64,000 nucleotides of DNA, taken from Candidatus Bathyarchaeia archaeon (GTDB lineage Archaea > Thermoproteota > Bathyarchaeia > 40CM-2-53-6 > DTGE01). Of the stretch, positions 2,278 through 50,063 are shown piece after piece. Each line of letters begins with the position of its first letter. Position 1 is the first letter of the stretch. Under the pieces are notes generated by a model. The model had not been told where the DNA came from. It did not search any database and saw nothing but the letters and a program-made list of their open reading frames with translations. Location of the stretch: contig JAWCKG010000005.1 in NCBI GenBank assembly GCA_038852285.1, positions 16,812 through 80,811 on the forward strand, in the 5' to 3' direction. The position numbers were made by a program, and so were the translations under genes.

Positions 2278-2280
2278 GGG

Positions 2281-26613: not shown

Positions 26614-28305
26614 TTGGTTATAGGTGGAGGAGGTGCCGCGGCGAGGGCTGCGTTGGCCGCCCGGGAGCGGGGATCCGAGGTCGCGGTGCTAGTGAAAGGC
26701 CGACTCGGTGGAAGCGGGTGCACACCATACGCGGCATCGGAGTGGCTAGCGTTTGGGGCGGCCTTAGGCCACGCGGATCCCAGGGATAGCCCTGAGCAAC
26801 ATTATAAGGACATACTGGAGAAGGGCGCTTACGTGTGCGACCCTAGGCTCGCTAGGATATTGGCCTATGAATCCCCTGAAAGATTGCTCGACTTAGAAAG
26901 CAGGGGAGTTAGGTTCGATAAAACACCTGATGGCAGATTTGTACAGCGGATGTCGGATGGAGCCACCTACCCTAGAGCGTGCGCGAAGGGAGCTGAAACC
27001 GGACGGGAAATCATGAGGGTGCTTTCAAACCAAGTTAAGGAGCTGGGATGCGACGTGTATGAAAATACGATGGCCGTAGACCTAATATCTGTCCGCGATG
27101 CCGTATACGGGGTCATCGCATTAGACATGGAATTGCGTGAATACGAGGTTTTCTGGGCGAAGGCGGTGGTCATGGCCACCGGGGGGGCTGGATCCCTGTT
27201 CAAGCACAACGTCTTCCCTGAGGGGATGACGGGCGACGGCTACGCCATGGCTTACAATGCTGGAGCTGAGCTTGTGAACATGGAGTTCATTCAAATAGGC
27301 CCCGCAATCCTGCGTCCCACGAAATTCGATGTAGGAGGCGTGTTGTGGAGGCTGGGCCCCCGGTTGTACAACAGGCTTGGAGAAGAGTATCTGCGGAAAT
27401 ATCTTCCAGTAGGCGTTACGGTGGAGGAGGTGTACGCCCTGAAAAGCGTGAGCTTTCCCTTCTCCACTAGAAACAACTCCATGTACATTGACATCGCGAA
27501 CTTCACGGAGATCGTGGAGGGTAGAGGAAGTGAAAGCGGCTGCATTTACTTCGACCTAACCCATGTGGATCCAGCTCGAGTCGAGGAGGAAGCTGGGGTT
27601 CCATTCAACTGGCTGAGGAGCTTCGGAGTCGACTTAACGAAAAGCCCTGTGGAAATCGCCCCCGCCGTCCAGCATTTCAACGGCGGCGTACACGTCGGGG
27701 AATGGGGTGAAACAAACTTGAGGGGCCTCTTCGCGGCGGGTGAATGCCAGGGTGGACAGCATGGGGCGGATCGGCCGGGTGGAGACGCCCTAGCCAACTG
27801 TCAGGTCTTTGGGTTTAGGGCCGGTCACATGGCTTCGAAAATGGCTGAAAAAACATCGCTTAGAAAGGCTTCTCATCGTAGGGTTAAGAATCTAATTGAG
27901 AAGCTGCCGAAGCCCATCGACTCCCAGGTGGCTTCCAGGGTGATTAAAGAGATCCAGGAATCCATGTGGAGAAACGTAACCGTGGTGAGGACTGAGAATG
28001 GCCTGCAGGAGGCTTTAAGAACGTTAAGCCGACTGGAGGCTGAGGCGGCGGAGGGACAGAGAGGGGATGGAGACGTCGTTAAATCCTTGGAGATTAGAAA
28101 CATGATCGCGGTTGGTAAGCTGGTTTCCACCGCGGCCATGACCCGCAAGGAGAGCAGGGGCACTCATTATAGAAGGGATTACCCCCAGAAGGGGGGCGAT
28201 GAGTGGTTAAGGTTCGTATGTTTAAAGCGTGTCGATGATCAGGTAACCGCGACGCTTAAGGACGTTGAAACCGGTGAATCTTTAAATGGAGACGCTCCTC
28301 CTTAA
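26614..28305 (+). CDS. FrdA/SdhA/NadB-family FAD flavoprotein, apparent TTG start
   Basis: N-terminal VIGGGGAAARAA dinucleotide fold, the active-site ESRGTHYRRDYP motif, and a C-terminal helical domain. No Fe-S partner gene is adjacent. Confidence 0.8.
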   Translation: MVIGGGGAAARAALAARERGSEVAVLVKGRLGGSGCTPYAASEWLAFGAALGHADPRDSPEQHYKDILEKGAYVCDPRLARILAYESPERLLDLESRGVRFDKTPDGRFVQRMSDGATYPRACAKGAETGREIMRVLSNQVKELGCDVYENTMAVDLISVRDAVYGVIALDMELREYEVFWAKAVVMATGGAGSLFKHNVFPEGMTGDGYAMAYNAGAELVNMEFIQIGPAILRPTKFDVGGVLWRLGPRLYNRLGEEYLRKYLPVGVTVEEVYALKSVSFPFSTRNNSMYIDIANFTEIVEGRGSESGCIYFDLTHVDPARVEEEAGVPFNWLRSFGVDLTKSPVEIAPAVQHFNGGVHVGEWGETNLRGLFAAGECQGGQHGADRPGGDALANCQVFGFRAGHMASKMAEKTSLRKASHRRVKNLIEKLPKPIDSQVASRVIKEIQESMWRNVTVVRTENGLQEALRTLSRLEAEAAEGQRGDGDVVKSLEIRNMIAVGKLVSTAAMTRKESRGTHYRRDYPQKGGDEWLRFVCLKRVDDQVTATLKDVETGESLNGDAPP

Positions 28306-29775
28306 CCTTCCATCGGCGCTGTAGAGGTTAACCTCGACCTTTCCACCTCCAAGGATGTGAGACGCGCATGCCATGCATGGATCGTATGCCCTCATGACCA
28401 CTTCGATTCTGTTCAAGGAGGCTTCATCCACGGCGCCGCCGCGAAGGATTTTCCCCGCGGCTTTCCTGATTGATATGTTAATGGCGGGGTTGTTGCATGT
28501 GGTGGGTGGTATGAAGTTGGCGGCTTCCACCCTCGCGTCCTCAGTGGGCTTATACCAATGTAACAAAAGCCCTCTAGCAGCCTCCACGACCCCGAAGCCT
28601 TCCTTTAAAGTCGACTCCTGGGGAATATTCCTTACATTCTCATCGGTGATCTCCTCGTCTAAGCTGAGCTCAAGAACCCTTTCAGAAGCGTATAACAGCT
28701 CGATCAGCCTCGCCCAGTGGTAGGCGAAGATGTTGTTGATGGGCTTGCGTTTAAAGGTTTCAACCATCCTCTCGTATTCCCGCTGGGCCTTAGAGGTGGC
28801 CATACCTTTAGCCACGTTTAACCTGGCAAGGGGGCCAACTCTGAAAACACCGTTTTCAGGAGCCTCCGTCAAACCACGCCAACCCACTCGTCTGAGGTAA
28901 GGAAACTTCACGTACGTCCACTCCATTATCTCCTCCGCGACGTGATCAAAGTATTCCTCCGGCCTTATCTTCGCGTACGTCGACCCGTCAGGAGCCGTGA
29001 TCTTAATATCCCCATCATACAGGTTCACATGGCCTTCCCGGTCCACGAGGCCCGCGTCGTAGCTGGTGAGCGCGAAGTCCTCATCTACAAGTAGACCTCT
29101 ATGGTCAGCGTTCTTTAACACCTCTTCATCGTAGAGTTGGAGGGTAAACTCGGCGAACTCCACGCATGACCGAGCCATCTTCTCTATCTCCTTCCTCTCC
29201 TTCTCAGATATGGGTTTAGACAACCCTCCTGGAACTCCGGTGACTGGGTGAACGGCCTTCCCCCCAACGATCTCCACGATCCTCTGTCCGTAAGCCCTAT
29301 GCTCAATCACCTTGCGGCCAACACCCTCCCCATACTTTTTCAGAACTCCTAGAATGTTCCTTTCAGCAGGCTTCTCCCCCACTCCCACAAGGAAGTCTGG
29401 TCCGCTGAGAAAATAGAAGTTGAGGATGTGGTCGGCTATCATGTACCCGTTATGCATCATCTCCCTCAGCTTCGCCGCCGTTGGAGTGGGCTCCAATCCC
29501 AACAGGCTGTCCACCGCCTTCACCGAGGCTAAGTGATGAGCCGGGGAGCATACCCCGCAGATGTTGGAGGTGATCCTAGGCAGGTCCTCGATCAACCTGC
29601 CTACGCAGAATCGCTCGAAGCCCCTGAGCTCCGGAACCTGCAGATATGCGTTTTTAACCCCGCCCCTCTCATCCATGAAGATGTCGATTTTCCCATGCCC
29701 CTCAAGCCTAGTCACGGGATCAATGGTCAATCTGCCCTCCACTATAACCATAGTTTTACCGCCCGCCTCCTCCAA
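28282..29775 (-). CDS. mvhA: [NiFe]-hydrogenase large subunit (MvhA-type, F420-non-reducing)
   Basis: N-terminal RICGVCSPAHH and C-terminal DPCMACASH Ni-Fe ligand motifs. Confidence 0.85.
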   Translation of the reverse strand: MEEAGGKTMVIVEGRLTIDPVTRLEGHGKIDIFMDERGGVKNAYLQVPELRGFERFCVGRLIEDLPRITSNICGVCSPAHHLASVKAVDSLLGLEPTPTAAKLREMMHNGYMIADHILNFYFLSGPDFLVGVGEKPAERNILGVLKKYGEGVGRKVIEHRAYGQRIVEIVGGKAVHPVTGVPGGLSKPISEKERKEIEKMARSCVEFAEFTLQLYDEEVLKNADHRGLLVDEDFALTSYDAGLVDREGHVNLYDGDIKITAPDGSTYAKIRPEEYFDHVAEEIMEWTYVKFPYLRRVGWRGLTEAPENGVFRVGPLARLNVAKGMATSKAQREYERMVETFKRKPINNIFAYHWARLIELLYASERVLELSLDEEITDENVRNIPQESTLKEGFGVVEAARGLLLHWYKPTEDARVEAANFIPPTTCNNPAINISIRKAAGKILRGGAVDEASLNRIEVVMRAYDPCMACASHILGGGKVEVNLYSADGRLRRSVSI

Positions 29776-30721
29776 CCCTCACACCTCTACCGATCAGTGA
29801 GGATGAAAAACAGTATTTGTACAGAGCCCCCACCGGGTCCTTTAGGGCCTCTAATGCGCCTATGCTTATAGGTTCATCTGTGGTTAGGATGGATCCTAAG
29901 GCGCCGATCATCCTGGCTCCTTGATCTGAAACGTTAAGCCTCCCGCCGCAGCCCCCGCAGGGCACGTTCGCCTCAACGCATTTGGCTCCACAGCCCCCTC
30001 GTGTAGCGGGCCCCATGCACAGTAAGCCCTGCTCTAAGAAGCATTTCTCCGGGTCCAAGGCCCTCCGGTATAGTCGATTCATGGACTGGACGGTTTTGCT
30101 GACTCTCTCCCTTCGACACTCGTCGCATACACTTTTGTCGGATCCTATGTAGAACTTGGGCCCCTGCGCGTTTCCAGCTGTGAGTATTTGAAACAGCCTC
30201 AGTATCAACTTAACAGGTGGAGGACACCCTGAAACATAGTAGTCGACTTTAGCCACGCTCTCGATGGGTTTGTTCAGCTCCAAGATGTCCGGCAGGTATA
30301 GCTCACCCTCAGGGGCCTTAAACACTCTGCTCGGCTTGACGGCTTGAGGGTTTCCAGTAGTAGGCGTCTCTTCGTATACTGTTTTAAGCATGTCCTGTTT
30401 TGAGCCTAGGTTTGCTAAGCCTTGGGTGCCACCCTCACAGGCGCATGAGCCGAAGGCCACCAGTGTTCTGGCCTTCGACCTCAAAAGTTTGACGATGTGC
30501 TCGTTTTCTTCATTTCTTATAGACCCGTTAACGATGGCCACATCCAAGTTTGGTAGGCTTTCCAGATCCTTGTATTTTACATCCATGGCGACAGGCCAAA
30601 AGACGATGTCTATGTCCTTTAAAACCTCTAGCAAGGCTTCGTTTACATCCAATAGGCCTACGTCGCATCCCCCGCATCCAGCGGCCCAGTAAACCGCCAC
30701 CTTCAGCTTACTCAAGCTCAC
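29756..30721 (-). CDS. mvhG: [NiFe]-hydrogenase small subunit (MvhG-type)
   Basis: Proximal-cluster Cys motifs (GCGGC...GSC) and CxxC...CGxC distal motifs. Overlaps the mvhA start. Confidence 0.8.
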   Translation of the reverse strand: MSLSKLKVAVYWAAGCGGCDVGLLDVNEALLEVLKDIDIVFWPVAMDVKYKDLESLPNLDVAIVNGSIRNEENEHIVKLLRSKARTLVAFGSCACEGGTQGLANLGSKQDMLKTVYEETPTTGNPQAVKPSRVFKAPEGELYLPDILELNKPIESVAKVDYYVSGCPPPVKLILRLFQILTAGNAQGPKFYIGSDKSVCDECRRERVSKTVQSMNRLYRRALDPEKCFLEQGLLCMGPATRGGCGAKCVEANVPCGGCGGRLNVSDQGARMIGALGSILTTDEPISIGALEALKDPVGALYKYCFSSSLIGRGVRVGGGGR

Positions 30722-31148
30722 TCAACTCCGTAGAGGATTCCTTCAAGGGGTTTGGGCCAAGCCTCTTCAATTCCTCAACGAACTCCCTTACCTTCCTCGA
30801 GAACTCCTCTCCTTCAGAGGCGGATATCCACTCCAATCTAAGCCTTTCCGGCTCGACGCCGAGCTGTGTTAGGAGAAGCTTTAGGATTTGAACTCTGTTC
30901 CGAGCCTTCAGATTCCCGTTGACATAGTGGCAGTCGCTAGGGGGGTGGCAGCCACCTATGAATACGCCGTCGGCGCCTTTTTTGAGGGCCTCCAAGACGA
31001 ATTCAGGGTTTACTCGACCAGTGCACATAACTCTGACGATTTTCAGGTTCGGAGGGTACTGAAACTTGCTTGTACCAGCCATGTCCGCGCCTGCGTATGT
31101 GCACCAATTGCAGGCGAAACAAACTATGTTAGGTTCGAATTCGGACAT
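30708..31148 (-). CDS. mvhD: MvhD-like [2Fe-2S] electron-transfer subunit
   Basis: 146 aa with CFACNWC... Cys pairs. Positioned between hdrA and mvhG. Confidence 0.75.
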   Translation of the reverse strand: MSEFEPNIVCFACNWCTYAGADMAGTSKFQYPPNLKIVRVMCTGRVNPEFVLEALKKGADGVFIGGCHPPSDCHYVNGNLKARNRVQILKLLLTQLGVEPERLRLEWISASEGEEFSRKVREFVEELKRLGPNPLKESSTELSELE

Positions 31149-31151
31149 CGG

Positions 31152-33140
31152 TTAACGCCTCACTGTGGACAAAATGGCTTCAACCTCGCTCTTCAACTGC
31201 TCATCTGTGAAATGCCTCATTTTAATCGCGCCTGAGGGACATGTGGCGCCGCAGACGCCGCATCCTTTACATAGAACTTGGTTGACCTTAGACCTCTTCA
31301 TTCCCTCTCTGACTTCGAGCTCGATCGCGTTGAAGAAGCAGGCCTGAACGCATAGACCGCAGCCCCCACATCGGTCCTCGTCAACCTCGGCTGTTATCGG
31401 CTCGACGGTAACCACTCCCTTAGATAAGAGGGCTGACGCCCTGCTGGCCGCGGCGCTGGCCTGAGCCACCGTGTCCGGTATGTCTTTAGGCCCCTGGGCG
31501 GTGCCGCAAACATATATGCCATCCGTGAACGTTTCAACCGGCCTAAGCTTTGGGTGGGCTTCAGCTAAGAATCCGTCAGGAGTCGTTGAAAGCTTCAGTA
31601 TGGTTCTCAGCTCCTCGACATCGGATGGAATTAGCCCGGCGGCCAACACGACGAGGTCGAATTCTTCCTCGAACACCTCACCCAGATAGGTGTTTTCATA
31701 TCTTAACCTTAAGTTTCCGGAGACGTCTTCAAGCACCTCAGCGACCCGGCCCCTCACCACTTTCACCCCTTCTCCTTGCACCCTTTCCAGAAACTCCTCG
31801 TATCCTTTCCCGAAGCATCTCAAATCTGTGTAAAAGATGACCACATCCGAGCTTGGATCCTTTTCTTTAACCTGGTGTGCTTGCTTGACGGAGGCCATAC
31901 AGCATATCCTAGAGCAGTACTTGTTGGAGTTTACATCCCTAGATCCGACGCATTGTAGGAAAGCTACCCTTCGAGGCGGCTTACGGTCGGAAGGCCTAAG
32001 TATTTGACCATAGGTGGGCCCTGAGGCGCTGACCATCCGCTCGAACTCTAGGTTTGTTATCACGTTTTTGTATCTTCCATACCCATATTCATATTTCTGT
32101 GAGCAGTCGTATGGTTCGTACCCGGTGGCGATGACGATCGCCCCTACCTTGAGCTTCACCTCCACGGGTTTCTGATCAAAGTCCACCGCCTTTTCAGGGC
32201 AAAACTTCTCGCATACCCTGCAAACGCCTTTCTGATGGTACAGGCAGTGCTCTGGGTCTATGGTGTACTTTAAAGGAACAGCCTGTGGGAACGGGATGTA
32301 TATGGCTTTCCGCTCGCCGAGGCCCATGTCGAACTCGTTGGGAACCCTGACGGGGCATTTTTCAGCGCATAACCCGCAGGCCCTGCACAATTCTTCTCGA
32401 ACAAACCTAGGCTTCCTTAAAACGGTGACTTCGAAGCCTCCTACATTACCCCCCACGGACTTTACTTCGGAGTAGACGAGCAATTCGATGTTTTCGTGTC
32501 TCGAGGCCTCTACCATTTTCGGCGTCAGTATACATGAGGAACAATCTAACGTTGGAAACGTCTTGTCAAGTTGAGCCATATGTCCCCCGAGGGAGGGTTG
32601 CTTCTCAACCAAGTAGACTTTGAAGCCTTGATCCGCTAAGTCGAGTGAGGCTTGAATGCCGGCTACGCCACCACCCACCACTAAGACAGATTTTTCCACC
32701 TCTATGGTAAGGGGTTCAAGAGGCTCATTATGGAGGCTTTTCATCACCGCGGCGGCTACCAGAGCCTTGGCCTTCTCCGTAGCCGCTTCTTTTTGGTTCA
32801 TATGAACCCAGGAGCATTGCTCCCTGATGTTCGCTACCTCCAGCAGGTAGGGGTTGAGTCCCGACTCCTTCACCGTCCTCCTGAATGTTTCCTCATGCAT
32901 CCTCGGCGAGCATGCCGCCACAACCACGCGATTTAATCCCCGTTGCTTCACGTTGTCCTTTATCAATCCTTGTCCTGGGTCGGAGCAGAGGTAAACATAG
33001 TGGGTTGAAAACTCTACCCCGGGAAGTTTCCCAGAGAACTCAGCCAAGGCCTCCACGTTTACTGTTCCGGCGATGTTGCTTCCACAATGGCATATGAAGA
33101 CGCCTATTCTCACAGGCTCTTTTAGAGGCTCATCCTTCAC
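31152..33140 (-). CDS. hdrA: Heterodisulfide reductase subunit A (FAD, multiple Fe-S)
   Basis: 662 aa with the GGGVAG FAD motif, several CxxCxxCxxxCP ferredoxin motifs, and an N-terminal Cys cluster. Confidence 0.9.
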   Translation of the reverse strand: MKDEPLKEPVRIGVFICHCGSNIAGTVNVEALAEFSGKLPGVEFSTHYVYLCSDPGQGLIKDNVKQRGLNRVVVAACSPRMHEETFRRTVKESGLNPYLLEVANIREQCSWVHMNQKEAATEKAKALVAAAVMKSLHNEPLEPLTIEVEKSVLVVGGGVAGIQASLDLADQGFKVYLVEKQPSLGGHMAQLDKTFPTLDCSSCILTPKMVEASRHENIELLVYSEVKSVGGNVGGFEVTVLRKPRFVREELCRACGLCAEKCPVRVPNEFDMGLGERKAIYIPFPQAVPLKYTIDPEHCLYHQKGVCRVCEKFCPEKAVDFDQKPVEVKLKVGAIVIATGYEPYDCSQKYEYGYGRYKNVITNLEFERMVSASGPTYGQILRPSDRKPPRRVAFLQCVGSRDVNSNKYCSRICCMASVKQAHQVKEKDPSSDVVIFYTDLRCFGKGYEEFLERVQGEGVKVVRGRVAEVLEDVSGNLRLRYENTYLGEVFEEEFDLVVLAAGLIPSDVEELRTILKLSTTPDGFLAEAHPKLRPVETFTDGIYVCGTAQGPKDIPDTVAQASAAASRASALLSKGVVTVEPITAEVDEDRCGGCGLCVQACFFNAIELEVREGMKRSKVNQVLCKGCGVCGATCPSGAIKMRHFTDEQLKSEVEAILSTVRR

Positions 33141-34030
33141 TGGACGCTCACCTTGGTGATCTTCCTTAAAAACGGCTGGGTAGATATGGCGTGGGCCTGT
33201 AACCCCAGAAGTCTTGGGTTTAAGCCAAACGCCAACCCTAGTAGCTGGGTTAAATGGACGACTGGTATGTTATATTCTAAGCCCTTCTTCTCGGCTAGCT
33301 CCCTTTGACCTCTATCGAACTGTAGGTGGCAAAAAGCACATACGTTTAATATGCAATCTGCTTGCGACGCCTTTACGTTCTCCAACTTCTCCTTCGTCAT
33401 GTCTAAGGCGAGCTCCAAGTTGGAGGACCTTACCCCTCCGCCTGCTCCGCAACACATGTGCTTGTCCTTATAATCGACGCTTTCGGCCCCTAGGTTTCGA
33501 ACCAACTCATCCACAAATACGGGTTTCTCAGGGTTATCGATCTTTTTCAGAGTTCCAGGCCTCAGAAGATGACATCCATAGTGCACGGCGATTTTCAATC
33601 CAGTCAAGCTCTGACTCAGCCTTTTCACTTGGTCCAAATGTCCCTCATATATCAGCTTGGCGAAGTGATGAACCTCCACGTTTCCCCTGTAAATCCTTCC
33701 AGTTTTAGAAAGGAGCGCATTCACGGTTTTCCTTGTTTCCTCTTCATTTTTGAGCGTATTGTTTGCTTCAAAGAGGGTCCCGAAGCATCCGTTACACAAG
33801 GTAACCACGTCAGCGCGGTTTTCCTCCGCTATGGCAAGGTTTCGAGCCGCCACCGTCAACCAGGTTTGTTCACTAAAAGAGCCAACAACCCCGGGTGCGG
33901 GGCAGCATGAAGCTCCAAGCATGTCTTTCAAATTCACCCCGAGTTTATTGAAAACCATCTTGGTGGCGGATTCTATGCCAGGATACCTATTAGGGACGAT
34001 GCACCCTAGGAACAGGGAGTAACTCGTCAA
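33137..34030 (-). CDS. hdrB: Heterodisulfide reductase subunit B (two CCG domains)
   Basis: CCPAPG and CCGAGGG CCG-domain signatures. 4-nt overlap with hdrA. Confidence 0.85.
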   Translation of the reverse strand: MTSYSLFLGCIVPNRYPGIESATKMVFNKLGVNLKDMLGASCCPAPGVVGSFSEQTWLTVAARNLAIAEENRADVVTLCNGCFGTLFEANNTLKNEEETRKTVNALLSKTGRIYRGNVEVHHFAKLIYEGHLDQVKRLSQSLTGLKIAVHYGCHLLRPGTLKKIDNPEKPVFVDELVRNLGAESVDYKDKHMCCGAGGGVRSSNLELALDMTKEKLENVKASQADCILNVCAFCHLQFDRGQRELAEKKGLEYNIPVVHLTQLLGLAFGLNPRLLGLQAHAISTQPFLRKITKVSVQ

Positions 34031-34539
34031 CCAGTCATCCTCCTGAAACCAGTGGCCTCCAAGATGGTTTCAAGCTCCTTCAGCGATTCAGGGTAGCTGT
34101 GGACGGTCGGAGGTAGCTCGCTCAAACCTAGGCTTTTCCTGACAGCCCTCACTTCATCGTTTATCGGCACCAAGTGACCTGTATCACAAAATAGCCGGGC
34201 CACCTTTTGATGAGCGGCCTTCATGAACCCCTTTCGAACGGCGATATTCCTCAGCCTCTTTATGACCGAGGTTGGCTGGGCGTCACGGGGGCATCGATCA
34301 AAACAGACATAGCAGGTGGTGCATAGCCACAAATCATCGGAGTTTAACACATCTTCGAAACCCATAAGAACCTTTTCCATCAACCGCCTCACCCTTAACT
34401 GTGTCCTTCGACCAGATGGACAGCTACCCGTACAAGCCCCGCATTGAACGCATTTCAGAAGATTTCGACTATGGGATATGAGTTCATCTAATACGGTTTC
34501 AACGGCTCGGGATCGACTTTCTTGGATGGACGTGGGCAA
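34027..34539 (-). CDS. hdrC: Heterodisulfide reductase subunit C (2x[4Fe-4S])
   Basis: CVQCGACTGSCP and CTTCYVCFDRCP motifs. Overlaps the hdrB start. Confidence 0.85.
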   Translation of the reverse strand: MPTSIQESRSRAVETVLDELISHSRNLLKCVQCGACTGSCPSGRRTQLRVRRLMEKVLMGFEDVLNSDDLWLCTTCYVCFDRCPRDAQPTSVIKRLRNIAVRKGFMKAAHQKVARLFCDTGHLVPINDEVRAVRKSLGLSELPPTVHSYPESLKELETILEATGFRRMTG

Positions 34540-34902
34540 AGTTTTCTCCTCAAACCGTGTTGTGGAGAGGGTGCGAGTTGGGTCATATTAACGGAGTTAA
34601 AATATTTAAAGATTATTTAATGTGATGCCGTGCTGGAGACCCCTGCTTTATGACAAAAATATTTTAATTTTATCGGATAAAACCTTCCGATGCTATGTTT
34701 TTTTTAAAAAAAAAGTTTGTCGCTTTACTAAAATTAATTTTCAGATGAGAACTACGAGCTCGCTTTCTTAAACCTCAAATATTATTTAAAAATTTCAAGA
34801 CTTAAACCTATATATAGCACTTTCAAGTGAATTAAACGTGGCTGAAGGCTTTTTTATGTTAAGAGGTTTAAAAATTAATGATTTGTCGGTCTTCGCGACT
34901 GC

Positions 34903-35595
34903 GTGGGATGCTGTATGAGAAGAAGCCTATCTGGGTGGCTTGATAGGAGGGAGAAGGCGCGGACGTTGAGCATCGCGAAGGAGCAGATGAAGAAGGCTTT
35001 AGACACGGTTTACGAGTTAGAGAAAGGCCTAAGGGAGGCTTCTCAGGGAGATCATGAGGCGTCAAGGAGTTCCATTGAAAGGCTGTTCGTGATGGAGGAG
35101 GAGGTGGATCAGTTAAGGAGGGAGGTTTTTCAGCGCTTAGCGAGGGTTGAGTTGAGGACCAGGGATCGAGAGGACCTCCTGCACTTTGTGAAAAGAATGG
35201 ATGTCATGGCGGATCATGTGAAGGATTCCGCTAGAGCGGTGTTGATCCTATTGAAGTCTAAGTCTATTCCCTCCACCATTTGGGACGGCTTAATCAAAAT
35301 GTCTAAAAGCTTGGTGGAGTGCGCTTCATCGCTGAGGATGAGCATTGAAAGGCTTGAGGACGATGTTAAGAAGGCGGAGGAGTTTTCGCTGAAAGTAGAT
35401 GAATGGGAGCATAAGGTTGATGATCAAAACCTAGATTTGAGGAAGCTTTTAATCGAGGGGGCTGGGAAAATCGATCCCGCCACCCTCATAACTCTTAGGG
35501 ATCTGGTGTTTTCCATGGAGGAGGTGGCGGATAGTTGTGCAGACACCGCCGACTACATACGTGTGTTGATCTCAGGCGGGATGGGCCCCCATTAA
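34903..35595 (+). CDS. DUF47 / PhoU-like protein (distant PhoU homolog, TIGR00153-like)
   Basis: Helical, Glu/Arg-rich repeats with the EEEVDQLRRE...LRTRDREDLL pattern. The start may be the internal ATG at 34915. Confidence 0.6.
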   Translation: MGCCMRRSLSGWLDRREKARTLSIAKEQMKKALDTVYELEKGLREASQGDHEASRSSIERLFVMEEEVDQLRREVFQRLARVELRTRDREDLLHFVKRMDVMADHVKDSARAVLILLKSKSIPSTIWDGLIKMSKSLVECASSLRMSIERLEDDVKKAEEFSLKVDEWEHKVDDQNLDLRKLLIEGAGKIDPATLITLRDLVFSMEEVADSCADTADYIRVLISGGMGPH

Positions 35596-35607
35596 CCGGG
35601 ATATAGA

Positions 35608-36279
35608 TTAGAATAGCCCAACTGTGATTACTCTAATTTGGTCTACTGTGTTTTCACACCAATCTGCGACGTATTCTATGGCGTCTAGCAGCTGGCTGAT
35701 CAATATGGCTTCCCCTGGGTTTATGTTTCCATAATCCATGCTGGGGTAATGCTCCCTAGCTTGCTGGTATAAGCCGTCCACCTCCTCCTCAAGCCTCTCC
35801 ACTTGGTCAGCTATTTTCAAGGATTCTTCCAGGTCTTCGCTGAGCTTGTCAACGCATCTAGCCACCGCGTTAACGCATTCCCCAACCTTGCCAATCATGC
35901 TTAAAACCACGTTCATCAACTCTGATGGTAGCTTATGGATCGGCGCCGACACTAAGATTCTAGCTGCTTCCAAGCTCCAGTCCGCGATCCAGTCGATGAG
36001 GCGAACCAAGCGTAGGAGATCGCCTCTATCAGACGGCTCCAACTCGCTTTTAGCCACCTCCAACGTAATTCTTCTCCTAATCGAGTCCGCTTCCCTTTCA
36101 TGGCTGAACACTAAATTTATGCTGGAGGAAGCCACGTCGACATCTCCTACCGATTTGAATTTAACGGCCTTAGAAAGCTCTTCAAAGCATTTGATTGTTG
36201 AGTCCAAATGGTTTCTAGCCAGCTGAATAACGCTGATCCTTTTTCTTCTATCAAGCCAATCCAATATTCTTTTACTCAA
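35608..36279 (-). CDS. DUF47 / PhoU-like protein, co-transcribed at the end of the ABC importer operon
   Basis: Same fold pattern (EREADSIRRRITLE...SDRGDLLRLV). Its start overlaps the stop of the upstream ABC ATPase. Confidence 0.6.
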   Translation of the reverse strand: MSKRILDWLDRRKRISVIQLARNHLDSTIKCFEELSKAVKFKSVGDVDVASSSINLVFSHEREADSIRRRITLEVAKSELEPSDRGDLLRLVRLIDWIADWSLEAARILVSAPIHKLPSELMNVVLSMIGKVGECVNAVARCVDKLSEDLEESLKIADQVERLEEEVDGLYQQAREHYPSMDYGNINPGEAILISQLLDAIEYVADWCENTVDQIRVITVGLF

Positions 36280-37375
36280 CCTTTATCGCTTCCATCAAAC
36301 CTTCCTTCGGATAAAAGTAGATGTGAATTCTTTTCGGATTTAACCTTACACTTACTTTTTCCCCTAATCTAAACCTTACCTTTGATTCGATTGGGGTTCG
36401 AATAGTGATCAAATCGTCGTTGATGAGGCGAACCTCAAACCTTGTGATCCCTCCGGTGAACCTCACCCTCTCCACTTCACCGGCAACAACGTTCACATCG
36501 CTGCCCGAATATTTTTCAAGCTTCATGAACTCAGGTCTTATCGCCAAGGCGACCCTGTCACCTATTTTAAACCCATCAGCCTCGGCTTTTATCATTAACC
36601 CTCCATGAACCTCCACAAAGGTTTCCCCCTTACCTACGTTGACGACAACACCGTCCAAGAAGTTGGCTTCGCCGATGAAGTTGGCTATGTAAGGAGTCTT
36701 AGGATGAAGGTACAGGTCTTCTGGCGACCCAACCTGCTCAATCCTGCCCCTCCTCATCACCACAATTTTATCGGAGATCGTCATAGCCTCCTCTTGGTCA
36801 TGGGTTACATGTATGGCCGTTAAGCCTAGATCCTCCACCAGCTTCCTCAGCTCGTAGCGCAGGATGACCCTTAACTTCGCGTCTAAAGCCCCTAAAGGCT
36901 CGTCGAGCAGCAGAAGCTGCGTTCCAGCCGAGAGGGCCCTAGCCAACGCAGCCCTCTGCTGCATGCCTCCGCTAAGCTCCTCGGGATAAGCGTCCTCCCT
37001 GCCGCTTAACCTCACCATCTCCAACATTTGCTTCGCGAGCTTTTCAGTATCCTCTTCACTCCAACCCTTCACCGCCGGTCCATAAGTGGTGTTGCCCCAT
37101 AGATCCATGTGAGGGAACAACGCGTAGTTTTGGAACACGAACCCGACCCCGCGATCTTCTGGAGGAACCTTGGTCACATCTCTGCCGTCGATTAATATCC
37201 TTCCTTCATCGGGCTCCACTAACCCCGCTATGAGGCGTAGGGTGGTGGTTTTCCCGCATCCACTGGCCCCCAGCAAGGTGACGTATTCACGGTTTTTCAC
37301 CGTTAAGCTGATCCTGTCCACTGCCACAACTTTTCCATACCTTTTCGTGACGTCAATTAATTCTACGTCAGGCAA
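36272..37375 (-). CDS. ABC transporter ATP-binding protein with a C-terminal TOBE-like domain (FbpC/CysA/PotA type)
   Basis: Walker A GASGCGKTT, signature LSGGMQQR, Walker B LLLDEP, plus a C-terminal beta-rich extension of about 120 aa. Confidence 0.9.
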   Translation of the reverse strand: MPDVELIDVTKRYGKVVAVDRISLTVKNREYVTLLGASGCGKTTTLRLIAGLVEPDEGRILIDGRDVTKVPPEDRGVGFVFQNYALFPHMDLWGNTTYGPAVKGWSEEDTEKLAKQMLEMVRLSGREDAYPEELSGGMQQRAALARALSAGTQLLLLDEPLGALDAKLRVILRYELRKLVEDLGLTAIHVTHDQEEAMTISDKIVVMRRGRIEQVGSPEDLYLHPKTPYIANFIGEANFLDGVVVNVGKGETFVEVHGGLMIKAEADGFKIGDRVALAIRPEFMKLEKYSGSDVNVVAGEVERVRFTGGITRFEVRLINDDLITIRTPIESKVRFRLGEKVSVRLNPKRIHIYFYPKEGLMEAIKVE

Positions 37376-37398
37376 TTTGATTCAGACCTCCGCTAACG

Positions 37399-39117
37399 CT
37401 ATTTTGAAATCCATTTAAAAACCACCAACAACACCAGCGATATGCCTATCAGATAGGCGGAGGAGAATAGGGCGGCGGGAATGGCTAACGCTTCAACCAT
37501 GTTGACGACCAAGGTAGGAACCGTGATGTCCTTCCCCATGACGATGAAGGTTGCGCCTGTTTCGCCCAGGGAATGGGTGAAAGAGAGTACGGCGCCGGCT
37601 AACACTCCCCTCTTCACCAAGGGCAGCGATATGGTCTCCGCCACGTCGTAGGATGTGGCCCCTAAGGTTCTCGCACTCTCCTCGAACAAGGCGATTTGAG
37701 AGCCCTCGTACGCCGCAATGGTGGGCTCAACGATAACGGGAACGGAGAAAACGATATGGGTTAAAATTGTAAGCCATACCCCTGGATTCAGGAGGCTTAA
37801 ACCTGAGGGCCCCCATAGCAGGAGGACCGATAAACCTAAAGCCGATGTGGGAACAATGAGAGGAATCTTCAGAACCGACCTTATCAATCCTCCAAACCTG
37901 TGTTTTTTGATGATGAACGCCAAGGGGACGGCTAAGCAAACGGATATGTATGTGGCGGTTGAAGCGACTGTAAAAGATGTAACCGTAGCCCTTACAAGGG
38001 ATTTAAAGTAGTTCGGAGGACCGAACAGCTGGTATAAGATTCCGCCAGTGACCTTCCCCGTGTATGGATCTCGACTCCAGTAAGGGATTATGGAGTTCAA
38101 CACCACAAGCACTGGGATGATCACCGTTATAACTAGGATCGATAAACTGGCCACATCTTTAACGATGTTTAACTTCTTTGAAAACGTTCTCTCAAGTCTA
38201 GGAATAACCCTTCTAAGCCCGGAGCCTAGCTCAAGCTTCTTAAACCCCCTAAACCTTAGCCTTGAGCCCATTAAAAGCTCAACAGGCAGAATCAGCGCCC
38301 AGGCCACTAATATCAGGAGGCAACCGAGAAAGGAGGCCGGTGCGAACTTAAATTCAAACACCCATCTTACGATAGCAATGGAAGCCGTTGAGTATATTCC
38401 GCTCACAACCATCGTGGCCCCGGTTTCCCCTAAGGACCGGGCGAACGCCAACACACTTCCAGAGAAGATGCCTGGGAGGGCAAGGGGCAGCAAAATTTTT
38501 CTAAAGGTTGTAAAGGAAGGCGCCCCCAATGTTCTAGACGCGGTTTCATAAACCGGGTTCACCTCTTCCATTTTGGCCTTCACCGTCAGCACAACGTATG
38601 GCAACGTGAGTCCAATATGAACCATGAACATTAAGAAGGGAATTTTAAGAAGGGGGATCAGGTAGCCAAGGTTGATGAGCCCTGAGCCCAAACCCAGAAA
38701 TCCCCCTAAACCAGCTACCGTGGTCCATGTGATCAAGGTGGCGAACCCGAAGCCTGAAGTGGGAATTACCAACGGCAACGTTACGATGTCCTCGAGTAGA
38801 GATTTTCCAGCAAACCTTTTCCTAGCCAACATGTACGCCAAGGGGACGCCGAAGATTAAGTCGAACAGCACCGTCAAGGCGGACAGTTTAAAAGAGAACA
38901 ATAATACCCTTTGGATTTGGATCCAATTCTCATTTCCTATATGGGGGTTCGCGAAAATCTCCAAGTAAATTTCGTTCCATCGAGTAAAGGTGAAGGAGAT
39001 TAAAAATATCGTGGGCAATAAGACCAAAAACATGAACGCGGTTAAAGAAGAGTAAAGGACAAGGGAATTGAACCATCTTCTAGGCTCAGTTTTAACGACT
39101 GTAAGCCATGTCTGCAT
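37399..39117 (-). CDS. Fused double-domain ABC permease (FbpB/ThiP-like)
   Basis: 572 aa with two tandem permease modules, each carrying an EAA-type loop (ETASRTLGAPSF and EESARTLGATSY). Confidence 0.85.
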   Translation of the reverse strand: MQTWLTVVKTEPRRWFNSLVLYSSLTAFMFLVLLPTIFLISFTFTRWNEIYLEIFANPHIGNENWIQIQRVLLFSFKLSALTVLFDLIFGVPLAYMLARKRFAGKSLLEDIVTLPLVIPTSGFGFATLITWTTVAGLGGFLGLGSGLINLGYLIPLLKIPFLMFMVHIGLTLPYVVLTVKAKMEEVNPVYETASRTLGAPSFTTFRKILLPLALPGIFSGSVLAFARSLGETGATMVVSGIYSTASIAIVRWVFEFKFAPASFLGCLLILVAWALILPVELLMGSRLRFRGFKKLELGSGLRRVIPRLERTFSKKLNIVKDVASLSILVITVIIPVLVVLNSIIPYWSRDPYTGKVTGGILYQLFGPPNYFKSLVRATVTSFTVASTATYISVCLAVPLAFIIKKHRFGGLIRSVLKIPLIVPTSALGLSVLLLWGPSGLSLLNPGVWLTILTHIVFSVPVIVEPTIAAYEGSQIALFEESARTLGATSYDVAETISLPLVKRGVLAGAVLSFTHSLGETGATFIVMGKDITVPTLVVNMVEALAIPAALFSSAYLIGISLVLLVVFKWISK

Positions 39118-39142
39118 CCCTATCCTCCTCCTTCGCGTTCCC

Positions 39143-40303
39143 TTAAACGCCGGGGTTTCGAGCCTTCGCCCAATCTACGAATATGGCTTCCAGCACCTCG
39201 CCAAGTGGGGGGTTAAGAACCGGCGTATCGATGCGTGGTTGAACTCCGTTTTCCTCGCTGAACAACTCTTCATCCAAGGGCACGCTTGGATTGGCTGGCC
39301 TCAGCCCATACTCTTGGGCCATTCTCTGAACCTCAGGCTTCAACAGATATATTAAGTACTGGGTCGCGGCGAACCTCTGCCAGATCGACACCCACTCTGC
39401 GTCTAAGATCACGTAGGGATGGTCGCAGAGGAGAGTCCCCCTCTCAGGGTATATGGCTTTAATGGAGTCTCCCCACTTCTTTTTCGCTTTTAAGGAATTA
39501 TCTATGACGACGTTCTCATAAACTCCGAAGACGTCGATGGCGTCAGGTCCGTTTTCAGCCGCCCAGCTTCCGAAGAACCCTGTGCTCTCGCCGTAAGCGA
39601 CTGCGTGGGATTCAATCGCCCTCACAAACTCGACGACTTCTGGTTTTTTCAGATCCTCTACCTTGATTTCATCAGGCCTTTTATTCAACGCCTCAGCGAA
39701 CTCCAACACGGCTACCATGGCTCCACCGTTCGACAAGAGCGGATCAGGATGACCATATTTGAAGTGAACTCCTTTCTTACTTAGCTCGTAGAGGTCACGG
39801 AAGCTGGTAACGTTATATTTTGATAGGAAAGAGCTCCATCCAGCGATGACCACGGGAGATGTGGCCAAGGCCGTCCAATCCTTAGCGATGAGCTCTTCAT
39901 GGCCCTCACGCATCCACTTGCCGTTTAAATACGGGATCCACAGACTGGAGGCGGGGCTCCAAGCCGTGGGCTTGGCGCTTCCCAAGAGGATTAGGTTCAC
40001 GGTTTTATGAGAACCCGTTACCGTCAACTTAACCTTAACAGTTATGTTAAACTCGTCTTTAAACCATTCTTCAAAATCAGGGGTCACCCTCTCAATCCAC
40101 CCCTGCTTCTCGCTGGTGCATAGGAACTCAAACTCTATGTATTCGGGTTTAACCGTGGCGGTGGAGGGTTGAGTAAGGCTAGTGAATATGAATGAGATAC
40201 CTGAGAATATTAGAAAGCCAATTATTACCCCTGAGATGAGCATTAGGTATCCTCGCCTAGGAAACAAAGGCCTCCTCGACATGCTCCACACCTCTCCAAC
40301 CAT
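39143..40303 (-). CDS. ABC transporter substrate-binding protein with an N-terminal membrane anchor
   Basis: N-terminal TM helix followed by a periplasmic-binding-protein-like domain. First gene of the SBP-permease-ATPase operon. Confidence 0.7.
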   Translation of the reverse strand: MVGEVWSMSRRPLFPRRGYLMLISGVIIGFLIFSGISFIFTSLTQPSTATVKPEYIEFEFLCTSEKQGWIERVTPDFEEWFKDEFNITVKVKLTVTGSHKTVNLILLGSAKPTAWSPASSLWIPYLNGKWMREGHEELIAKDWTALATSPVVIAGWSSFLSKYNVTSFRDLYELSKKGVHFKYGHPDPLLSNGGAMVAVLEFAEALNKRPDEIKVEDLKKPEVVEFVRAIESHAVAYGESTGFFGSWAAENGPDAIDVFGVYENVVIDNSLKAKKKWGDSIKAIYPERGTLLCDHPYVILDAEWVSIWQRFAATQYLIYLLKPEVQRMAQEYGLRPANPSVPLDEELFSEENGVQPRIDTPVLNPPLGEVLEAIFVDWAKARNPGV

Positions 40304-40692
40304 TCACGTTCATCTACGCTCCAAGTTTAATGGGTCATCTCGAAGCCGAGCCTCATTAGCGCAATGTCGCTCACCGTTTCCTCAAAGAATAGCTAACAAG
40401 CGCATTTATATCGTTTCACGTCTTATGTTCGCTCTGTTCCTAATCATCTAAGGCTTTTAACGATTGCGGGTTAAACCTCATGCCCCTTTAAACCAGAATT
40501 CCACGAAACGTGGACAAGGAGGTTTGAAAGCCGCGTGAAGGGGGTTTTTGAAACCTTAACAGGGACGCTTGGTTAAGGTCAAAGCGAATATACTCCGACT
40601 TTGAGCAACGTTCTTGACTCGTGAAAGTTTGATTTCGATTGAGATTACGCGTCTTGTTTCCGCTCCAATCAGCCGCTGGATATCGTAACCCA

Positions 40693-47979: not shown

Positions 47980-48931
47980 AAATCATCAAAATGTTTTATA
48001 TATTTGGTCTAATAAATAAAGCTTTCTCATCTTAAACAATGGAGTTCATGCTTCTCATAAAACTCGTTTTGTGTTAAGTACAAATTAAAGAAGGAATATG
48101 ATAGATACGTTGCAAATACATATGATTTGAGAAATACTGGTTAAAGAGGACCATTACCTTACTTGAAAAATAACGCTTTCATTAAACCTGAAAAGAATTA
48201 AAAATAGTAGTACATTTTAAGATAGTTTAGAGAAGTGTTAAATTCTGTTTCTGTTTAATAATTCATTCATCGGTTATAGACGTCTATGTCTTGAGGGACT
48301 AGTGTTATGTGGAATGATGCTAGGAGCGGTTTGAAAAATTTTTAGCTGACGATTCAAAGAACTATTCTAATCTGTAAAAGATGTGACTCAATTGTTTATT
48401 TGACGAAGTAAATTAGGTTTGCTTTCAACTACTAGGGCTATGCTGATTACACTCCACACCCTAGATCCGTTTCGCTCCGTCAGGCTAAACTGACTGGATT
48501 CTAATCTTCACAAGCTTCTATAGACTTCTTAAATATTGATTTAAGCCATCTAACCTTATCTTTAACCATTTTAAAATTTTAGTTAACACAGAGCCATACG
48601 TCGACATTGTGCTGATTTATATTAAATGCGACTTACATATCGACGCATGTCAAATTAATGTGATACGCAGAAAACCTGAAATTGACGTTATAAAAATTCA
48701 ATGACCAAAAATTAAGACGTTAATTAACATCCTCACGGGCTGGTGTGTATAGCTTTTCACAAACCTATTCCATCTTTTTCCAAGCCATAAGGATAGGGTG
48801 AGGGATTCAATGCGTCCCACACCTTTTCTATGAAGCTGATAAAACCATCTAAGAGAAGACTACGATTTAGAATGTTATAGACCTTAAGATTAAGAATTTA
48901 AATGGGAGGTGCGTGAAATCAATATGAATAT

Positions 48932-49035
48932 GCGGGGGTTGCCAAGTCAGGTCAAAGGCGCAGGGCTTAGGACCTACATCAACGTAGGAAACCCTGTCCC
49001 GAAGGGGTTCGTGGGTTCGAATCCCACCCCCCGCA
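48932..49035 (+). tRNA. tRNA-Leu(UAG) with a roughly 19-nt intron in the anticodon loop and a long variable arm. No encoded CCA.
   Basis: Acceptor GCGGGGG pairs with CCCCCGC. T-arm is GTGGG-TTCGAAT-CCCAC. Anticodon stem is CAGGG/CCCTG, loop CTTAGG with the intron at 48972..48990. Variable arm is TCCCGAAGGGGTTC. Confidence 0.8.
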
Positions 49036-49126
49036 CTTTTGCGTTTACTTTTATTATCGTATGGAGAATATGATAAAATATTGTTCCGGTAAGAAGTCAA
49101 ACTCCTCCTTTAATTGGTATCTAGCT

Positions 49127-49617
49127 TTATGCATCTCGCCCTAATGACTTCCTTTGGAACAAAATGCCTAAACATTCTATTAAAACTGAATCCACCATCA
49201 CTTCTAACTCTATGATGGCGATTCCTCCGTTTGGTTTCGACTTGTCTCTCAATTTTCTAAAATAGTATACCCGATTTGGCAAATGATGATTAACGTTTCG
49301 CATAAAGACTAAATCTAGGCTCCTTCTAGGTAGAGGTAACTCATCTTTCGAGATAAGGATCGTTTCAACGTTATCTAAGCTTTTTATTTGGCTTTATCCT
49401 TGATAAATTCTAGAAATCCGGGATCTGTGCCAACCGAAAACACTTGGCCTTTTCTCCCGACTGTATTTGTAAACCGTGTAGAATAATATCCGCCTCCAGC
49501 TTCAATGTCAGCCACTATTTGTACTGACTGCGATATGAGTGCTTCCAATATCTCATCAGGTTTGTTTTTGAGGTCAGACGCTTTCCTATTAAACATCTCT
49601 GCCTTAAGATTTCTCAT
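49127..49617 (-). pseudogene. Class I SAM-dependent methyltransferase disrupted by a frameshift
   Basis: The N-part (49384..49617) carries motif I VADIEAGGGYY and post-I VFSVGTDPG. The C-part continues in a -1/+1 frame down to the stop at 49127 (LDLVFMRNVNHHLPNRVYYFRKLRDKSKPNGGIAIIE, matching MTase motifs II-III). Confidence 0.6.
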
Positions 49618-49765
49618 TCTCTACATATCTCATCAACAATTCTGAATGTTCATAATTTTAAGTATTCATTGGAAACAAAAAAGGACTTTATCTTAACATC
49701 TTTGTTTGGGTAAAAACGAGAATTTAAACCATTTTAAAACCAAATAGCCTCTATTAGGAACAATT

Positions 49766-49948: not shown

Positions 49949-50063
49949 GTCGTGTTCTTCACAACGCTCGAAAAGACTTAGCTGACATAATTAGAGGAAG
50001 TCTCTTTAAGTTAAAAGTACATCAAACATTATCCTATACAGTTATTTAGGCGGAAGAAGAAGG

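Follow-up and report, generated by a model that had tools for sequence, protein, structure and literature searches.

An ABC importer of Bathyarchaeia joined to PhoU-fold DUF47 proteins, a putative non-Pst transporter of phosphate or a related phosphorus oxyanion

The 64,000-nucleotide stretch of Candidatus Bathyarchaeia archaeon DNA analyzed here (contig JAWCKG010000005.1, positions 16,812 to 80,811; hereafter the window, numbered from its first letter) carries at 34.9-40.3 kb five genes that encode a substrate-binding protein (SBP), a fused double-domain permease, an ATPase with a TOBE domain and two PhoU-like proteins of the DUF47 family, DUF47-B and DUF47-A. These genes form a self-contained and uncharacterised ABC importer. 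The reading we favor, to which we give a probability of roughly 55%, is that the module is a non-Pst importer of phosphate or of a closely related phosphorus oxyanion, working alongside or instead of Pst, with DUF47 as a brake or sensor that acts on the ATPase. In sequence the parts of the importer trace back to the SulT/MolT (sulfate/molybdate/tungstate) branch of ABC transporters, and in both Bathyarchaeia and Thermofilaceae the importer forms part of the gene set for phosphate homeostasis.

On the minus strand the genes for the SBP, the fused permease, the TOBE-ATPase and DUF47-B follow one another in that order, as given by the open reading frame (ORF) map and the sequence, and DUF47-A on the plus strand converges on DUF47-B (Table 1). 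All five ORFs and the operon order were as described in the initial annotation, as was the translational coupling of a DUF47 gene to the end of the operon, its start overlapping the ATPase stop within 8 nt. Two details of that description required correction. The convergent stop codons are separated by 12 rather than 13 nt, and the DUF47 genes do not flank the operon but both lie at its 3' end.

The association of DUF47 with the transporter was followed across 77 non-redundant loci mapped from public contigs and genomes, with about 9 kb of flank on each side in the closed Bathyarchaeota chromosomes CP0706xx-CP0708xx. A DUF47 gene lay within 1.5 kb in 37 of 45 complete clusters (82-86% linkage), which bears out the co-occurrence that had been proposed as a check. 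Writing S for SBP, P for permease, A for ATPase, D for DUF47 and D' for DUF47 on the opposite strand, the gene orders found were S-P-A-D (21 loci), A-A-D-S-P (13 loci), S-P-A-A-D (6 loci), a divergent D' before S-P-A-A (6 loci), D-S-P-A (4 loci), D-S-P-A-A (2 loci), D-S-P-A-D (2 loci) and S-P-A-D-D' (2 loci, the window and L017). DUF47 is therefore placed in at least six ways (downstream, upstream on the same strand, divergent, mid-operon, doubled and convergent), and the persistence of linkage through so much rearrangement is good evidence of a functional tie with the transporter. All 13 of the A-A-D-S-P operons have the DUF47 gene, which sits between the ATPase and SBP genes and overlaps them or lies within about 100 nt on both sides. 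The 8-nt ATPase/DUF47 junction, [A/T]TGAGT[A/G]A, is kept in ten loci of two architectures; besides the window it occurs in L001, L002, L006, L008, L017 and L019 and in the differently ordered L036, L041 and L089. Conservation of this junction implies that DUF47 is translated together with the ATPase. In L017 the transporter genes are 77-80% identical to those of the window, and the DUF47-B and DUF47-A genes are 67.6% and 67.7% identical to theirs. The convergent DUF47 pair is also retained, with the ORFs overlapping by 4 nt, and nothing else there matches the window. As the module is kept amid unrelated flanks, the unit of conservation is the five-gene module. In a literature search neither this SBP family nor a pairing of DUF47 with an ABC transporter came up, although the term 'DUF47' mostly retrieved unrelated DUF47xx families.

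These data also bear on the possibility that the DUF47 genes are mere neighbors of the transporter which serve Pst, Na/Pi carriers or general phosphorus sensing. A relative of DUF47-A stands as an orphan in L097, with unrelated genes on both sides, nine uncut loci have no DUF47 gene, and an ortholog of one importer-associated DUF47 gene (D2, see below) stands next to pst without the importer in L103-L105, all of which such a reading would accommodate. However, it does not account for the coupling to the ATPase conserved across lineages and architectures, the tight placement of DUF47 in the A-A-D-S-P operons or the linkage in most complete clusters, and we consider it hardly credible.

The genomic context suggests phosphate. 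The commonest neighbor outside the core genes encodes a protein of about 350 residues having an AbrB/MazE DNA-binding domain and two PhoU domains (AbrB-PhoU). In 13 loci, including the DUF47-less L026 and L027, this gene lies 35-433 bp upstream of the SBP gene and is divergently oriented. A pstSCAB-phoU operon is directly adjacent to the importer in L040 and L055, and L018, related to the window at 76% identity, likewise has one next to the importer. The adjacent Pst genes are bona fide by their scores, with PstS at 209 bits on TIGR02136 (cut-off 206.6) and PhoU of L055 at 136.8 bits on TIGR02135 (cut-off 130.25). A scan for PstS gave the general form of the Bathyarchaeal pst operons (L103-L118), a minus-strand abrB-phoU gene followed by pstS-pstC-pstA-pstB-phoU-DUF47, and DUF47 is thus itself a member of archaeal pst operons.

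The strongest argument comes from a single syntenic frame, c3 < R < [slot] D2 > c7 c16 c8 c17, in which R is abrB-phoU and D2 is a DUF47 gene. The slot holds both pstSCAB-phoU-D1 and the SBP-permease-ATPase genes in L055 and L040. It holds pstSCAB-phoU-D1 alone in L103, where the c7/c8 flank is kept, and in L104 and L105, where the downstream flank differs. It holds the SBP-permease-ATPase genes alone in L045, L050, L073, L042, L048 and L066. That pst and importer cassettes replace one another while the regulator on one side and the accessory gene on the other stay the same argues that they serve the same physiological purpose. For the proposal of the initial annotation that a PhoU-like module had been recruited to a non-phosphate importer, the linkage of DUF47 is indeed conserved, but the non-phosphate part becomes less likely given the AbrB-PhoU genes, the adjacent pstSCAB-phoU operons and the alternation of importer and pst in one slot. 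The converse idea, that Bathyarchaeia lack Pst and that the importer replaces it, was considered but does not hold in general, as there are genuine pst operons, some of them right beside the importer. Since Pst stands beside the importer in some genomes, the importer is not simply a Pst replacement; the side-by-side arrangement would fit either two affinities or two substrates.

In the related loci the partner of DUF47 is this same ABC system, pst or a Na_Pi_cotrans gene. The last pairing is found in L007 and L016, where (L007:2906-6672 and L016:4785-8551, both Bathyarchaeota) a Na_Pi_cotrans gene (PF02690) is followed by a DUF47 gene, twice in tandem and as separate genes. In the pst operons of L101-L119 (for example L103:8930-15918 and L118:5081-11120) DUF47 is the last gene, about 25-30 nt after phoU, and a second DUF47 gene sometimes follows. 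This terminal position departs from the bacterial rule that DUF47/PitR accompanies PitA. In bacteria, according to a recent survey of 926 genomes, each PhoU-type accessory clade keeps to one family of phosphate importers, PhoU accompanying Pst in 99.4% of cases and PitR/DUF47 accompanying PitA in 97.8%; no ABC partner for DUF47 is described there (PMC13170248).

Both helical proteins of the window are DUF47/PhoU-fold proteins, as the initial annotation had supposed. DUF47-A matches PF01865 (PhoU_div/DUF47; gathering cut-off 24.4 bits) with 74.5 bits (E 1e-20, profile positions 15-212 of 214) and DUF47-B with 113.4 bits (E 1.2e-32, positions 11-213 of 214). The AF2 model made for DUF47-B (pLDDT 92.6) is a six-helix bundle, for which Foldseek returned first the DUF47 structures 2iiu/2olt (TM 0.79-0.84) and 3l39 and then the PhoU structures 4q25/1t8b/1t72. 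Four E/DxxxD pairs (E61/D65, D96/D100, E164/D168 and E202/D206) are invariant in 35 aligned DUF47 sequences, DUF47-A among them. Both proteins fall under the 104.3-bit cut-off of TIGR00153 (DUF47-A 66.1 bits, DUF47-B 89.7 bits) and are divergent subfamilies. Canonical PhoU (TIGR02135, cut-off 130.25) gave 17.5 bits for DUF47-B and no match for DUF47-A. Moreover, the gene that precedes DUF47-B encodes the TOBE-ATPase rather than PstB. The PitR-PitA pairing is likewise absent, the neighbors of the DUF47 genes being those of the ABC ATPase and an HdrC-like ferredoxin, with no PiT gene (PF01384).

The two DUF47 proteins are 29% identical over their full length and are old, distant paralogs, not a recent duplication. 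The 35-sequence alignment resolves two subtypes, one with the motif 'WIADW...ADWCENT' that includes DUF47-B, and one with 'VMADHVKDS...ADSCADTADY' that includes DUF47-A. Common to both are the four E/DxxxD motifs together with R68, R107 and D213, which characterise PhoU-fold proteins. Subtypes were assigned by pairwise identity and motifs, the neighbor-joining tree, which has no support values, serving as a guide only. The DUF47-B subtype is operon-terminal in the lineage of the window and is also found beside the Na/Pi-cotransporter-family genes of L007 and L016; DUF47-B is 37-41% identical to DUF47s that follow genes of this family. The DUF47-A subtype is the operon-terminal DUF47 of the same transporter in many other Bathyarchaeia (such as L099 and L045). 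DUF47-A is 42-45% identical to the operon-terminal DUF47s of other compared loci, and 48% identical to P0494, the terminal gene product of the L099 operon. The window lineage therefore has both of the transporter-linked subtypes, one coupled to the ATPase and the other behind an AT-rich putative promoter region of its own.

The transporter itself is not Pst. When the permease halves were scored separately against the NCBIfam models, the N-terminal half gave 115 bits with CysT, 114 (113.9) with ModB and 112 with WtpB, and the C-terminal half gave 90 (89.6) with ModB and 73 with WtpB. All of these scores are below the curated cut-offs (CysT 246, ModB 182.6 and WtpB 340 bits). The Pst models scored far lower, at 43.6 bits for PstC and 41.9 bits for PstA against cut-offs of about 195. 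The whole fused permease reaches 191.8 bits with ModB and so exceeds the 182.6-bit cut-off, but this is because the two halves add up. Models of the fused type gave only 36-39 bits (PhnU2) and about 29 bits (ThiP, whole protein). The ATPase has the Pfam domains ABC_tran (2.6e-33) and TOBE_2 (7.2e-11), and its best NCBIfam models, PhnT2, PotA, UgpC, CysA, FbpC and WtpC, are all under cut-off: the best, PhnT2, gives 353 bits, FbpC (PRK11432) 282.9 bits (cut-off 496) and WtpC 272 bits (cut-off 440). By descent the transporter is an oxyanion (SulT/MolT-like) importer outside all characterised families, which agrees with the alternative of an uncharacterised oxyanion importer raised in the initial annotation.

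The SBP has an N-terminal membrane anchor (a helix at residues 17-43) followed by a type II fold of cluster D, and matches the Pfam family SBP_bac_11 (E 9e-12). It has no NCBIfam match at E<=0.01, the PstS models TIGR00975 and TIGR02136 included. Structure prediction, which had been suggested as a means of finding the ligand class, gave an AF2 model of pLDDT 89.7 with the cluster-D type II architecture, and its nearest structures in Foldseek were the sulfate-binding Sbp proteins 5um2 and 1sbp (E 1.7e-14, 18% identity), followed by PhnS-like, PotD, FbpA and AfuA structures. Searches of the PDB with the sequence or a profile gave nothing useful, the best match again being the Sbp structure 5um2 (E ~0.5). 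When family profiles were aligned with HHalign, E. coli Sbp plus CysP gave a probability of 96.8% (E 2.2e-10, 247 columns), whereas E. coli ModA and PstS were not significant (PstS probability 0.4%). Of 25 members of the SBP family, eight matched curated NCBIfam models of sulfate/thiosulfate-binding proteins (best E 5.6e-5), the only matches to recur, and no member of the set matched PstS, ModA, WtpA, TupA or FbpA. The window SBP scores 12.3 bits on TIGR00971 (cut-off 155.5). These profile comparisons indicate an uncharacterised family that is remotely related to the sulfate- and thiosulfate-binding proteins Sbp and CysP.

The residues invariant in the SBP family are S64-E65-K66, G97, S116-P117-A118, H185, S191-N192-G194, S240-T241, Y262-E263, D294-H295 and R335, and these concentrate in the loops, leading from strand to helix, from which Sbp builds its anion site. 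We compared the sulfate-ligand positions of Sbp, which are Ser45, Ser130-Gly131-Gly132, the Ala173 NH and Trp192. In one alignment S98, S191-N192-G193 and Y262 (in YEN) of the SBP fall at the Sbp ligand positions (S130-G131-G132; W192 in WEN). In a second and better supported alignment the register at the Sbp ligand loops is shifted by 1-3 residues. As the register differs between the two alignments, the exact ligand residues are an uncertain, alignment-based assignment.

Relatives of the SBP fall into 427 clusters at 90% identity, and among the 120 clusters listed all those having a taxon name are from Bathyarchaeia. Several sources, JGI among them, wrongly name them 'Ca-activated chloride channel family protein'; among the family members one weak match to a VWA model was seen. 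There are more than 1,100 representatives of distant relatives, many with extra fused domains; examples are P0132-P0137, P0155 and P0156, of 550-1100 aa, in which an SBP-like domain is fused to other domains. The family evidently also has orphan members, as L011:3735-9019 carries two tandem SBP paralogs about 33% identical to the window SBP with no permease, ATPase or DUF47 gene; they lie near an aldehyde:ferredoxin oxidoreductase (AFOR) gene. Five loci with SBPs 53-61% identical to that of the window (L075, L077, L085, L027 and L026) belong to bins that carry the labels Actinomycetota, Saccharibacteria, Heimdallarchaeota, Odinarchaeota and Baldrarchaeota. The gene order and coordinates of L075 are those of the Bathyarchaeota locus L073 from the same sample series, and the DUF47s of these two loci are the closest pair in the tree. 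Mis-binned contigs seem more likely than a truly wide distribution.

The transporter had been called Fbp-type, which holds for the architecture, since a fused permease and a TOBE-ATPase are present, but not for the sequences. A ferric-iron importer of the Fbp/Afu type, the call that automatic annotation would probably make, could claim the shared FbpBC architecture, the many FbpA structures among the Foldseek matches of the SBP (E ~1e-12) and the 283 bits of the ATPase with FbpC. However, the permease halves score much lower on the fused Fbp/Thi/PhnU2-type models than on CysT/ModB and the survey of neighbor clusters gave no iron-related genes. Moreover, the SBP family has a single invariant Tyr-Glu in place of the Tyr-Tyr of the Fbp Fe3+ site (His/Glu/Tyr-Tyr), the FbpA models matched none of the 25 members scored, and the PhoU-type partners would be left unexplained. 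An iron importer is therefore very unlikely.

The main rival is that the system is a divergent importer of sulfate, thiosulfate, molybdate or tungstate to which a PhoU-fold DUF47 brake was recruited from phosphate systems. Its case is the descent of the parts: no relatives of the SBP other than Sbp and CysP could be detected, CysT/ModB/WtpB are the nearest models for each permease half, and the ATPase aligns well with WtpC and CysA over the whole length of those models. Tungsten enzymes also occur in Bathyarchaeia, as shown by the AFOR gene at 14022-15947 of the window. All of the scores, however, are far under the family cut-offs, and the genomic context favors phosphate. None of 80 genome loci has AFOR as a neighbor, none of the 25 commonest neighbor clusters is recognisable as a sulfate-assimilation or molybdenum-cofactor gene, the recurrent neighbors are instead AbrB-PhoU and pst, and the importer alternates with pst in one slot. 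In addition, regulation of a non-phosphate transporter is not known for any PhoU-family protein (PMC13170248). We regard this rival as unlikely, while giving it more weight than any of the others. A specific tungsten link, suggested by the AFOR genes near L011 and L099, was rejected upon the count of AFOR neighbors just given.

A second rival, improbable to our minds, is that the substrate is a reduced or organic phosphorus compound (a phosphonate such as 2-aminoethylphosphonate, a sugar phosphate or other organophosphate, phosphite or pyrophosphate); the importer would then belong to the phosphate-starvation response and have DUF47 as its accessory. PhnT2 is the best NCBIfam match of the ATPase, weak PhnV and PhnS2 matches were seen, and the Foldseek matches with best TM-score and rmsd include the PhnS-like 4r6y, with the hexose-phosphate and pyridoxal phosphate (PLP) binders AfuA, VcA0625 and P5PA also present. 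The coexistence with Pst in L040 and L055 would be sensible if the substrates differ. In contrast, the permease halves and the SBP profile are nearer to inorganic-oxyanion systems than to Phn, Afu or Ugp, and no phosphonate or phosphite catabolic genes were found among the 25 commonest neighbor clusters.

Several observations weigh against an importer of phosphate or a related phosphorus oxyanion. The homology is to sulfate, thiosulfate, molybdate and tungstate systems, with no detectable similarity to PstS or PstC/PstA beyond the general fold, and we know of no member of the SulT/MolT branch that carries phosphate. At the ligand loops the two alignments of the SBP with Sbp disagree in register. 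In the window neither pst nor AbrB-PhoU is near the locus; indeed no AbrB-PhoU ORF is found anywhere in the 64 kb, in contrast to the 13 related loci having one divergently upstream of the SBP gene. Pst is present next to the system in L040 and L055, and the occurrence of the D2 ortholog in L103-L105 with no importer beside it means that D2 is not strictly dependent on the importer. The nine uncut loci that lack DUF47 count here also, and the 'phosphate' role of the archaeal AbrB-PhoU and DUF47 proteins is one of annotation only.

If the module does import phosphate or a related anion, it could work as follows. The membrane-anchored SBP would capture a tetrahedral oxyanion in a pocket which, from remote homology, should resemble that of Sbp and be built of helix N-termini, Ser/Asn/Gly loops and the conserved Tyr-Glu. 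The SBP would then pass the anion to the fused permease, a pseudo-heterodimer, with transport energised by the ATPase dimer. DUF47-B would be made in fixed proportion to the ATPase by virtue of the 8-nt overlap. By analogy to PhoU-PstB and PitR-PitA, the DUF47 proteins may bind the ATPase/TOBE side and either brake transport or report on it when cellular phosphorus is sufficient. DUF47-A would be expressed separately from its own putative promoter, and may be a second, separately controlled brake or sensor of the same transporter or may provide an output to other targets.

A broader proposal, which we hold tentatively and at somewhat less than even odds, is that Bathyarchaeia and Thermofilaceae have a fourth class of phosphate importer-accessory pair not known in bacteria. 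A SulT/MolT-derived ABC importer would have switched to phosphate, would stand in for Pst at a locus controlled by AbrB-PhoU and would be gated by an ATPase-coupled DUF47. Archaeal DUF47 would then be a general accessory of three transporter families, Pst, Na/Pi-type carriers and this ABC system, whereas in bacteria it goes with PiT alone.

The coordinates of the locus are collected in Table 1. The true start of DUF47-A is likely the ATG at 34915, giving a protein of 226 aa, because this form is 100% identical to the public 226-aa protein P0390, labelled 'DUF47 family protein [Ca. Bathyarchaeia archaeon]'. For the SBP the probable start is M8, with its ATG at 40282 preceded by GGAGAGGTG. The TATA-like element upstream of DUF47-A is a probable promoter of that gene, and the TATAAAT upstream of the SBP gene a putative promoter of the operon. 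The transcripts of the convergent DUF47-A and DUF47-B genes probably overlap, as the 12-nt gap is too short for separate terminators.

Table 1. Features of the importer locus, in window coordinates.
Feature	Position	Strand	Basis
AT-rich intergenic region 5' of DUF47-A, divergent from HdrC-like gene	34540-34914	+	
TATA-like TTTAAAAATTAAT 5' of DUF47-A	34867-34879	+	read from sequence
DUF47-A, PhoU-like protein	34903-35595 (likely 34915-35595)	+	ORF map, PF01865
Gap between convergent DUF47-A/DUF47-B stop codons, 12 nt	35596-35607		
DUF47-B, operon-terminal PhoU-like protein, 223 aa	35608-36279	-	ORF map, PF01865
8-nt overlap TTGAGTAA, DUF47-B start TTG over ATPase stop TAA	36272-36279	-	
ABC ATPase with C-terminal TOBE_2 regulatory domain	36272-37375	-	Pfam ABC_tran, TOBE_2
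Fused double-domain ABC permease, 572 aa	37399-39117	-	Pfam, two BPD_transp_1 stretches
Substrate-binding protein (SBP)	39143-40303	-	Pfam SBP_bac_11
Region 5' of SBP operon, with TATAAAT at 40410-40404 (minus strand)	40304-40692	-	

The flanks of the module in the window are unrelated to it, with MvhADG/HdrABC genes beyond DUF47-A and an argininosuccinate lyase gene upstream of the SBP gene. The MvhA/MvhG/MvhD plus HdrA/HdrB/HdrC-like row (28282-34539, minus strand) is complete. It adjoins DUF47-A, from which it is divergently transcribed, and encodes the large and small subunits of a NiFe hydrogenase, FlpD, an HdrA-like flavoprotein, a CCG-domain protein and a ferredoxin. In L055, L040, L045, L050, L066, L073, L042 and L048 the importer locus lies between PyrB-like and PyrI-like genes. 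By position, which is the only matching made, the PyrB-like gene is probably c3 and the PyrI-like one probably c7; after the latter come c16, c8 and an acetyl-CoA-synthetase-like gene that is probably c17. The phosphate locus appears to have been inserted into a pyrB/pyrI neighborhood. In other lineages (L005, L006 and L015) adenylosuccinate synthetase is a recurrent neighbor. In 6 loci (for example L045:17663-18073) a low-molecular-weight phosphatase/ArsC-like gene (PF01451) is found a few kb or less from the operon, and a gene for arsenate detoxification so close by would be reasonable if phosphate is what the importer carries. A small winged-helix protein with a weak DUF7347 match is encoded near the operon in 7 loci.

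Elsewhere in the window a second ABC importer is encoded at 98-3072 (plus strand), with PotB/PotC-like permeases at 1432-2277 and 2281-3072. The 407-aa ORF that precedes these permeases (98-1321) has no NCBIfam match and is possibly another unclassified binding protein. A 104-nt tRNA, whose length would allow for an intron, at 48932-49035 (plus strand; Rfam 46.9 bits) was missed by ARAGORN. It lies in a gene-poor stretch, 48000-51500, in which the GC content falls to 0.37 (about 0.50 elsewhere) and which might be an element integrated next to a tRNA gene.

Inferences of phosphate uptake normally rely on the genes for Pst, PiT and NptA alone, and Bathyarchaeia are among the most abundant archaea of anoxic sediments. 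Given the number of its SBP clusters, this unannotated importer is widespread in Bathyarchaeia genomes. If it imports phosphorus, phosphorus-cycling inferences from sediment metagenomes miss a major transporter, the bacterial rule of one importer family per accessory clade (PhoU-Pst, PitR-PitA) fails in archaea, and the system provides an example of an ABC importer lineage that changed its anion specificity. If instead it imports sulfate, molybdate or tungstate, it would be the first case of a PhoU-fold regulator on a non-phosphate transporter.

Among known systems, FbpABC/AfuABC, the ferric-iron or hexose-phosphate family, have the same set of parts, in which a single SBP and a single TOBE-ATPase go with a fused double permease of some 520-570 aa, but the permease and SBP of the module have their sequence affinity with oxyanion systems, and to our knowledge no Fbp or Afu operon contains a PhoU-type gene. 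The closest sequence relatives are the CysPUWA/Sbp and ModABC/WtpABC importers (Sbp/CysP for the SBP; CysT, ModB and WtpB for the permease halves), and like CysA, ModC and WtpC the ATPase has a C-terminal regulatory domain. The module differs from these SulT/MolT importers in scoring far below their cut-offs, in the fusion of its permease domains and in having a membrane-anchored SBP that belongs to a large family of its own; nor are any of these importers known to have PhoU-type partners or to lie in a phosphate locus. With PitR (DUF47/PhoU_div)-PitA of bacteria such as S. aureus the module shares the Pfam family and fold of the accessory protein. PitR is encoded beside the transporter that it is thought to monitor (PMC13170248), as is the DUF47 of the module, although here the partner is a primary-active ABC importer rather than a secondary carrier of the PiT family.

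The pstSCAB-phoU system differs in its parts: the SBP, permease and ATPase of the module are outside the Pst families, the permease is a single fused chain, and the ATPase has a TOBE domain for which E. coli PstB (257 aa) is too short. Moreover, the accessory protein is DUF47 (PF01865) rather than PhoU and is present as two paralogs. In its arrangement, however, the module parallels pstSCAB-phoU, with SBP, permease and ATPase followed by a PhoU-fold protein as the last gene. The DUF47 accessory, like PhoU, has the six-helix fold and the E/DxxxD motifs, and the importer, like pst, occupies the same regulated Bathyarchaeal locus behind an AbrB-PhoU gene. The components of the module are members of known superfamilies, and in pairing an ABC importer with a PhoU-fold accessory protein the module follows the logic of pst-phoU.

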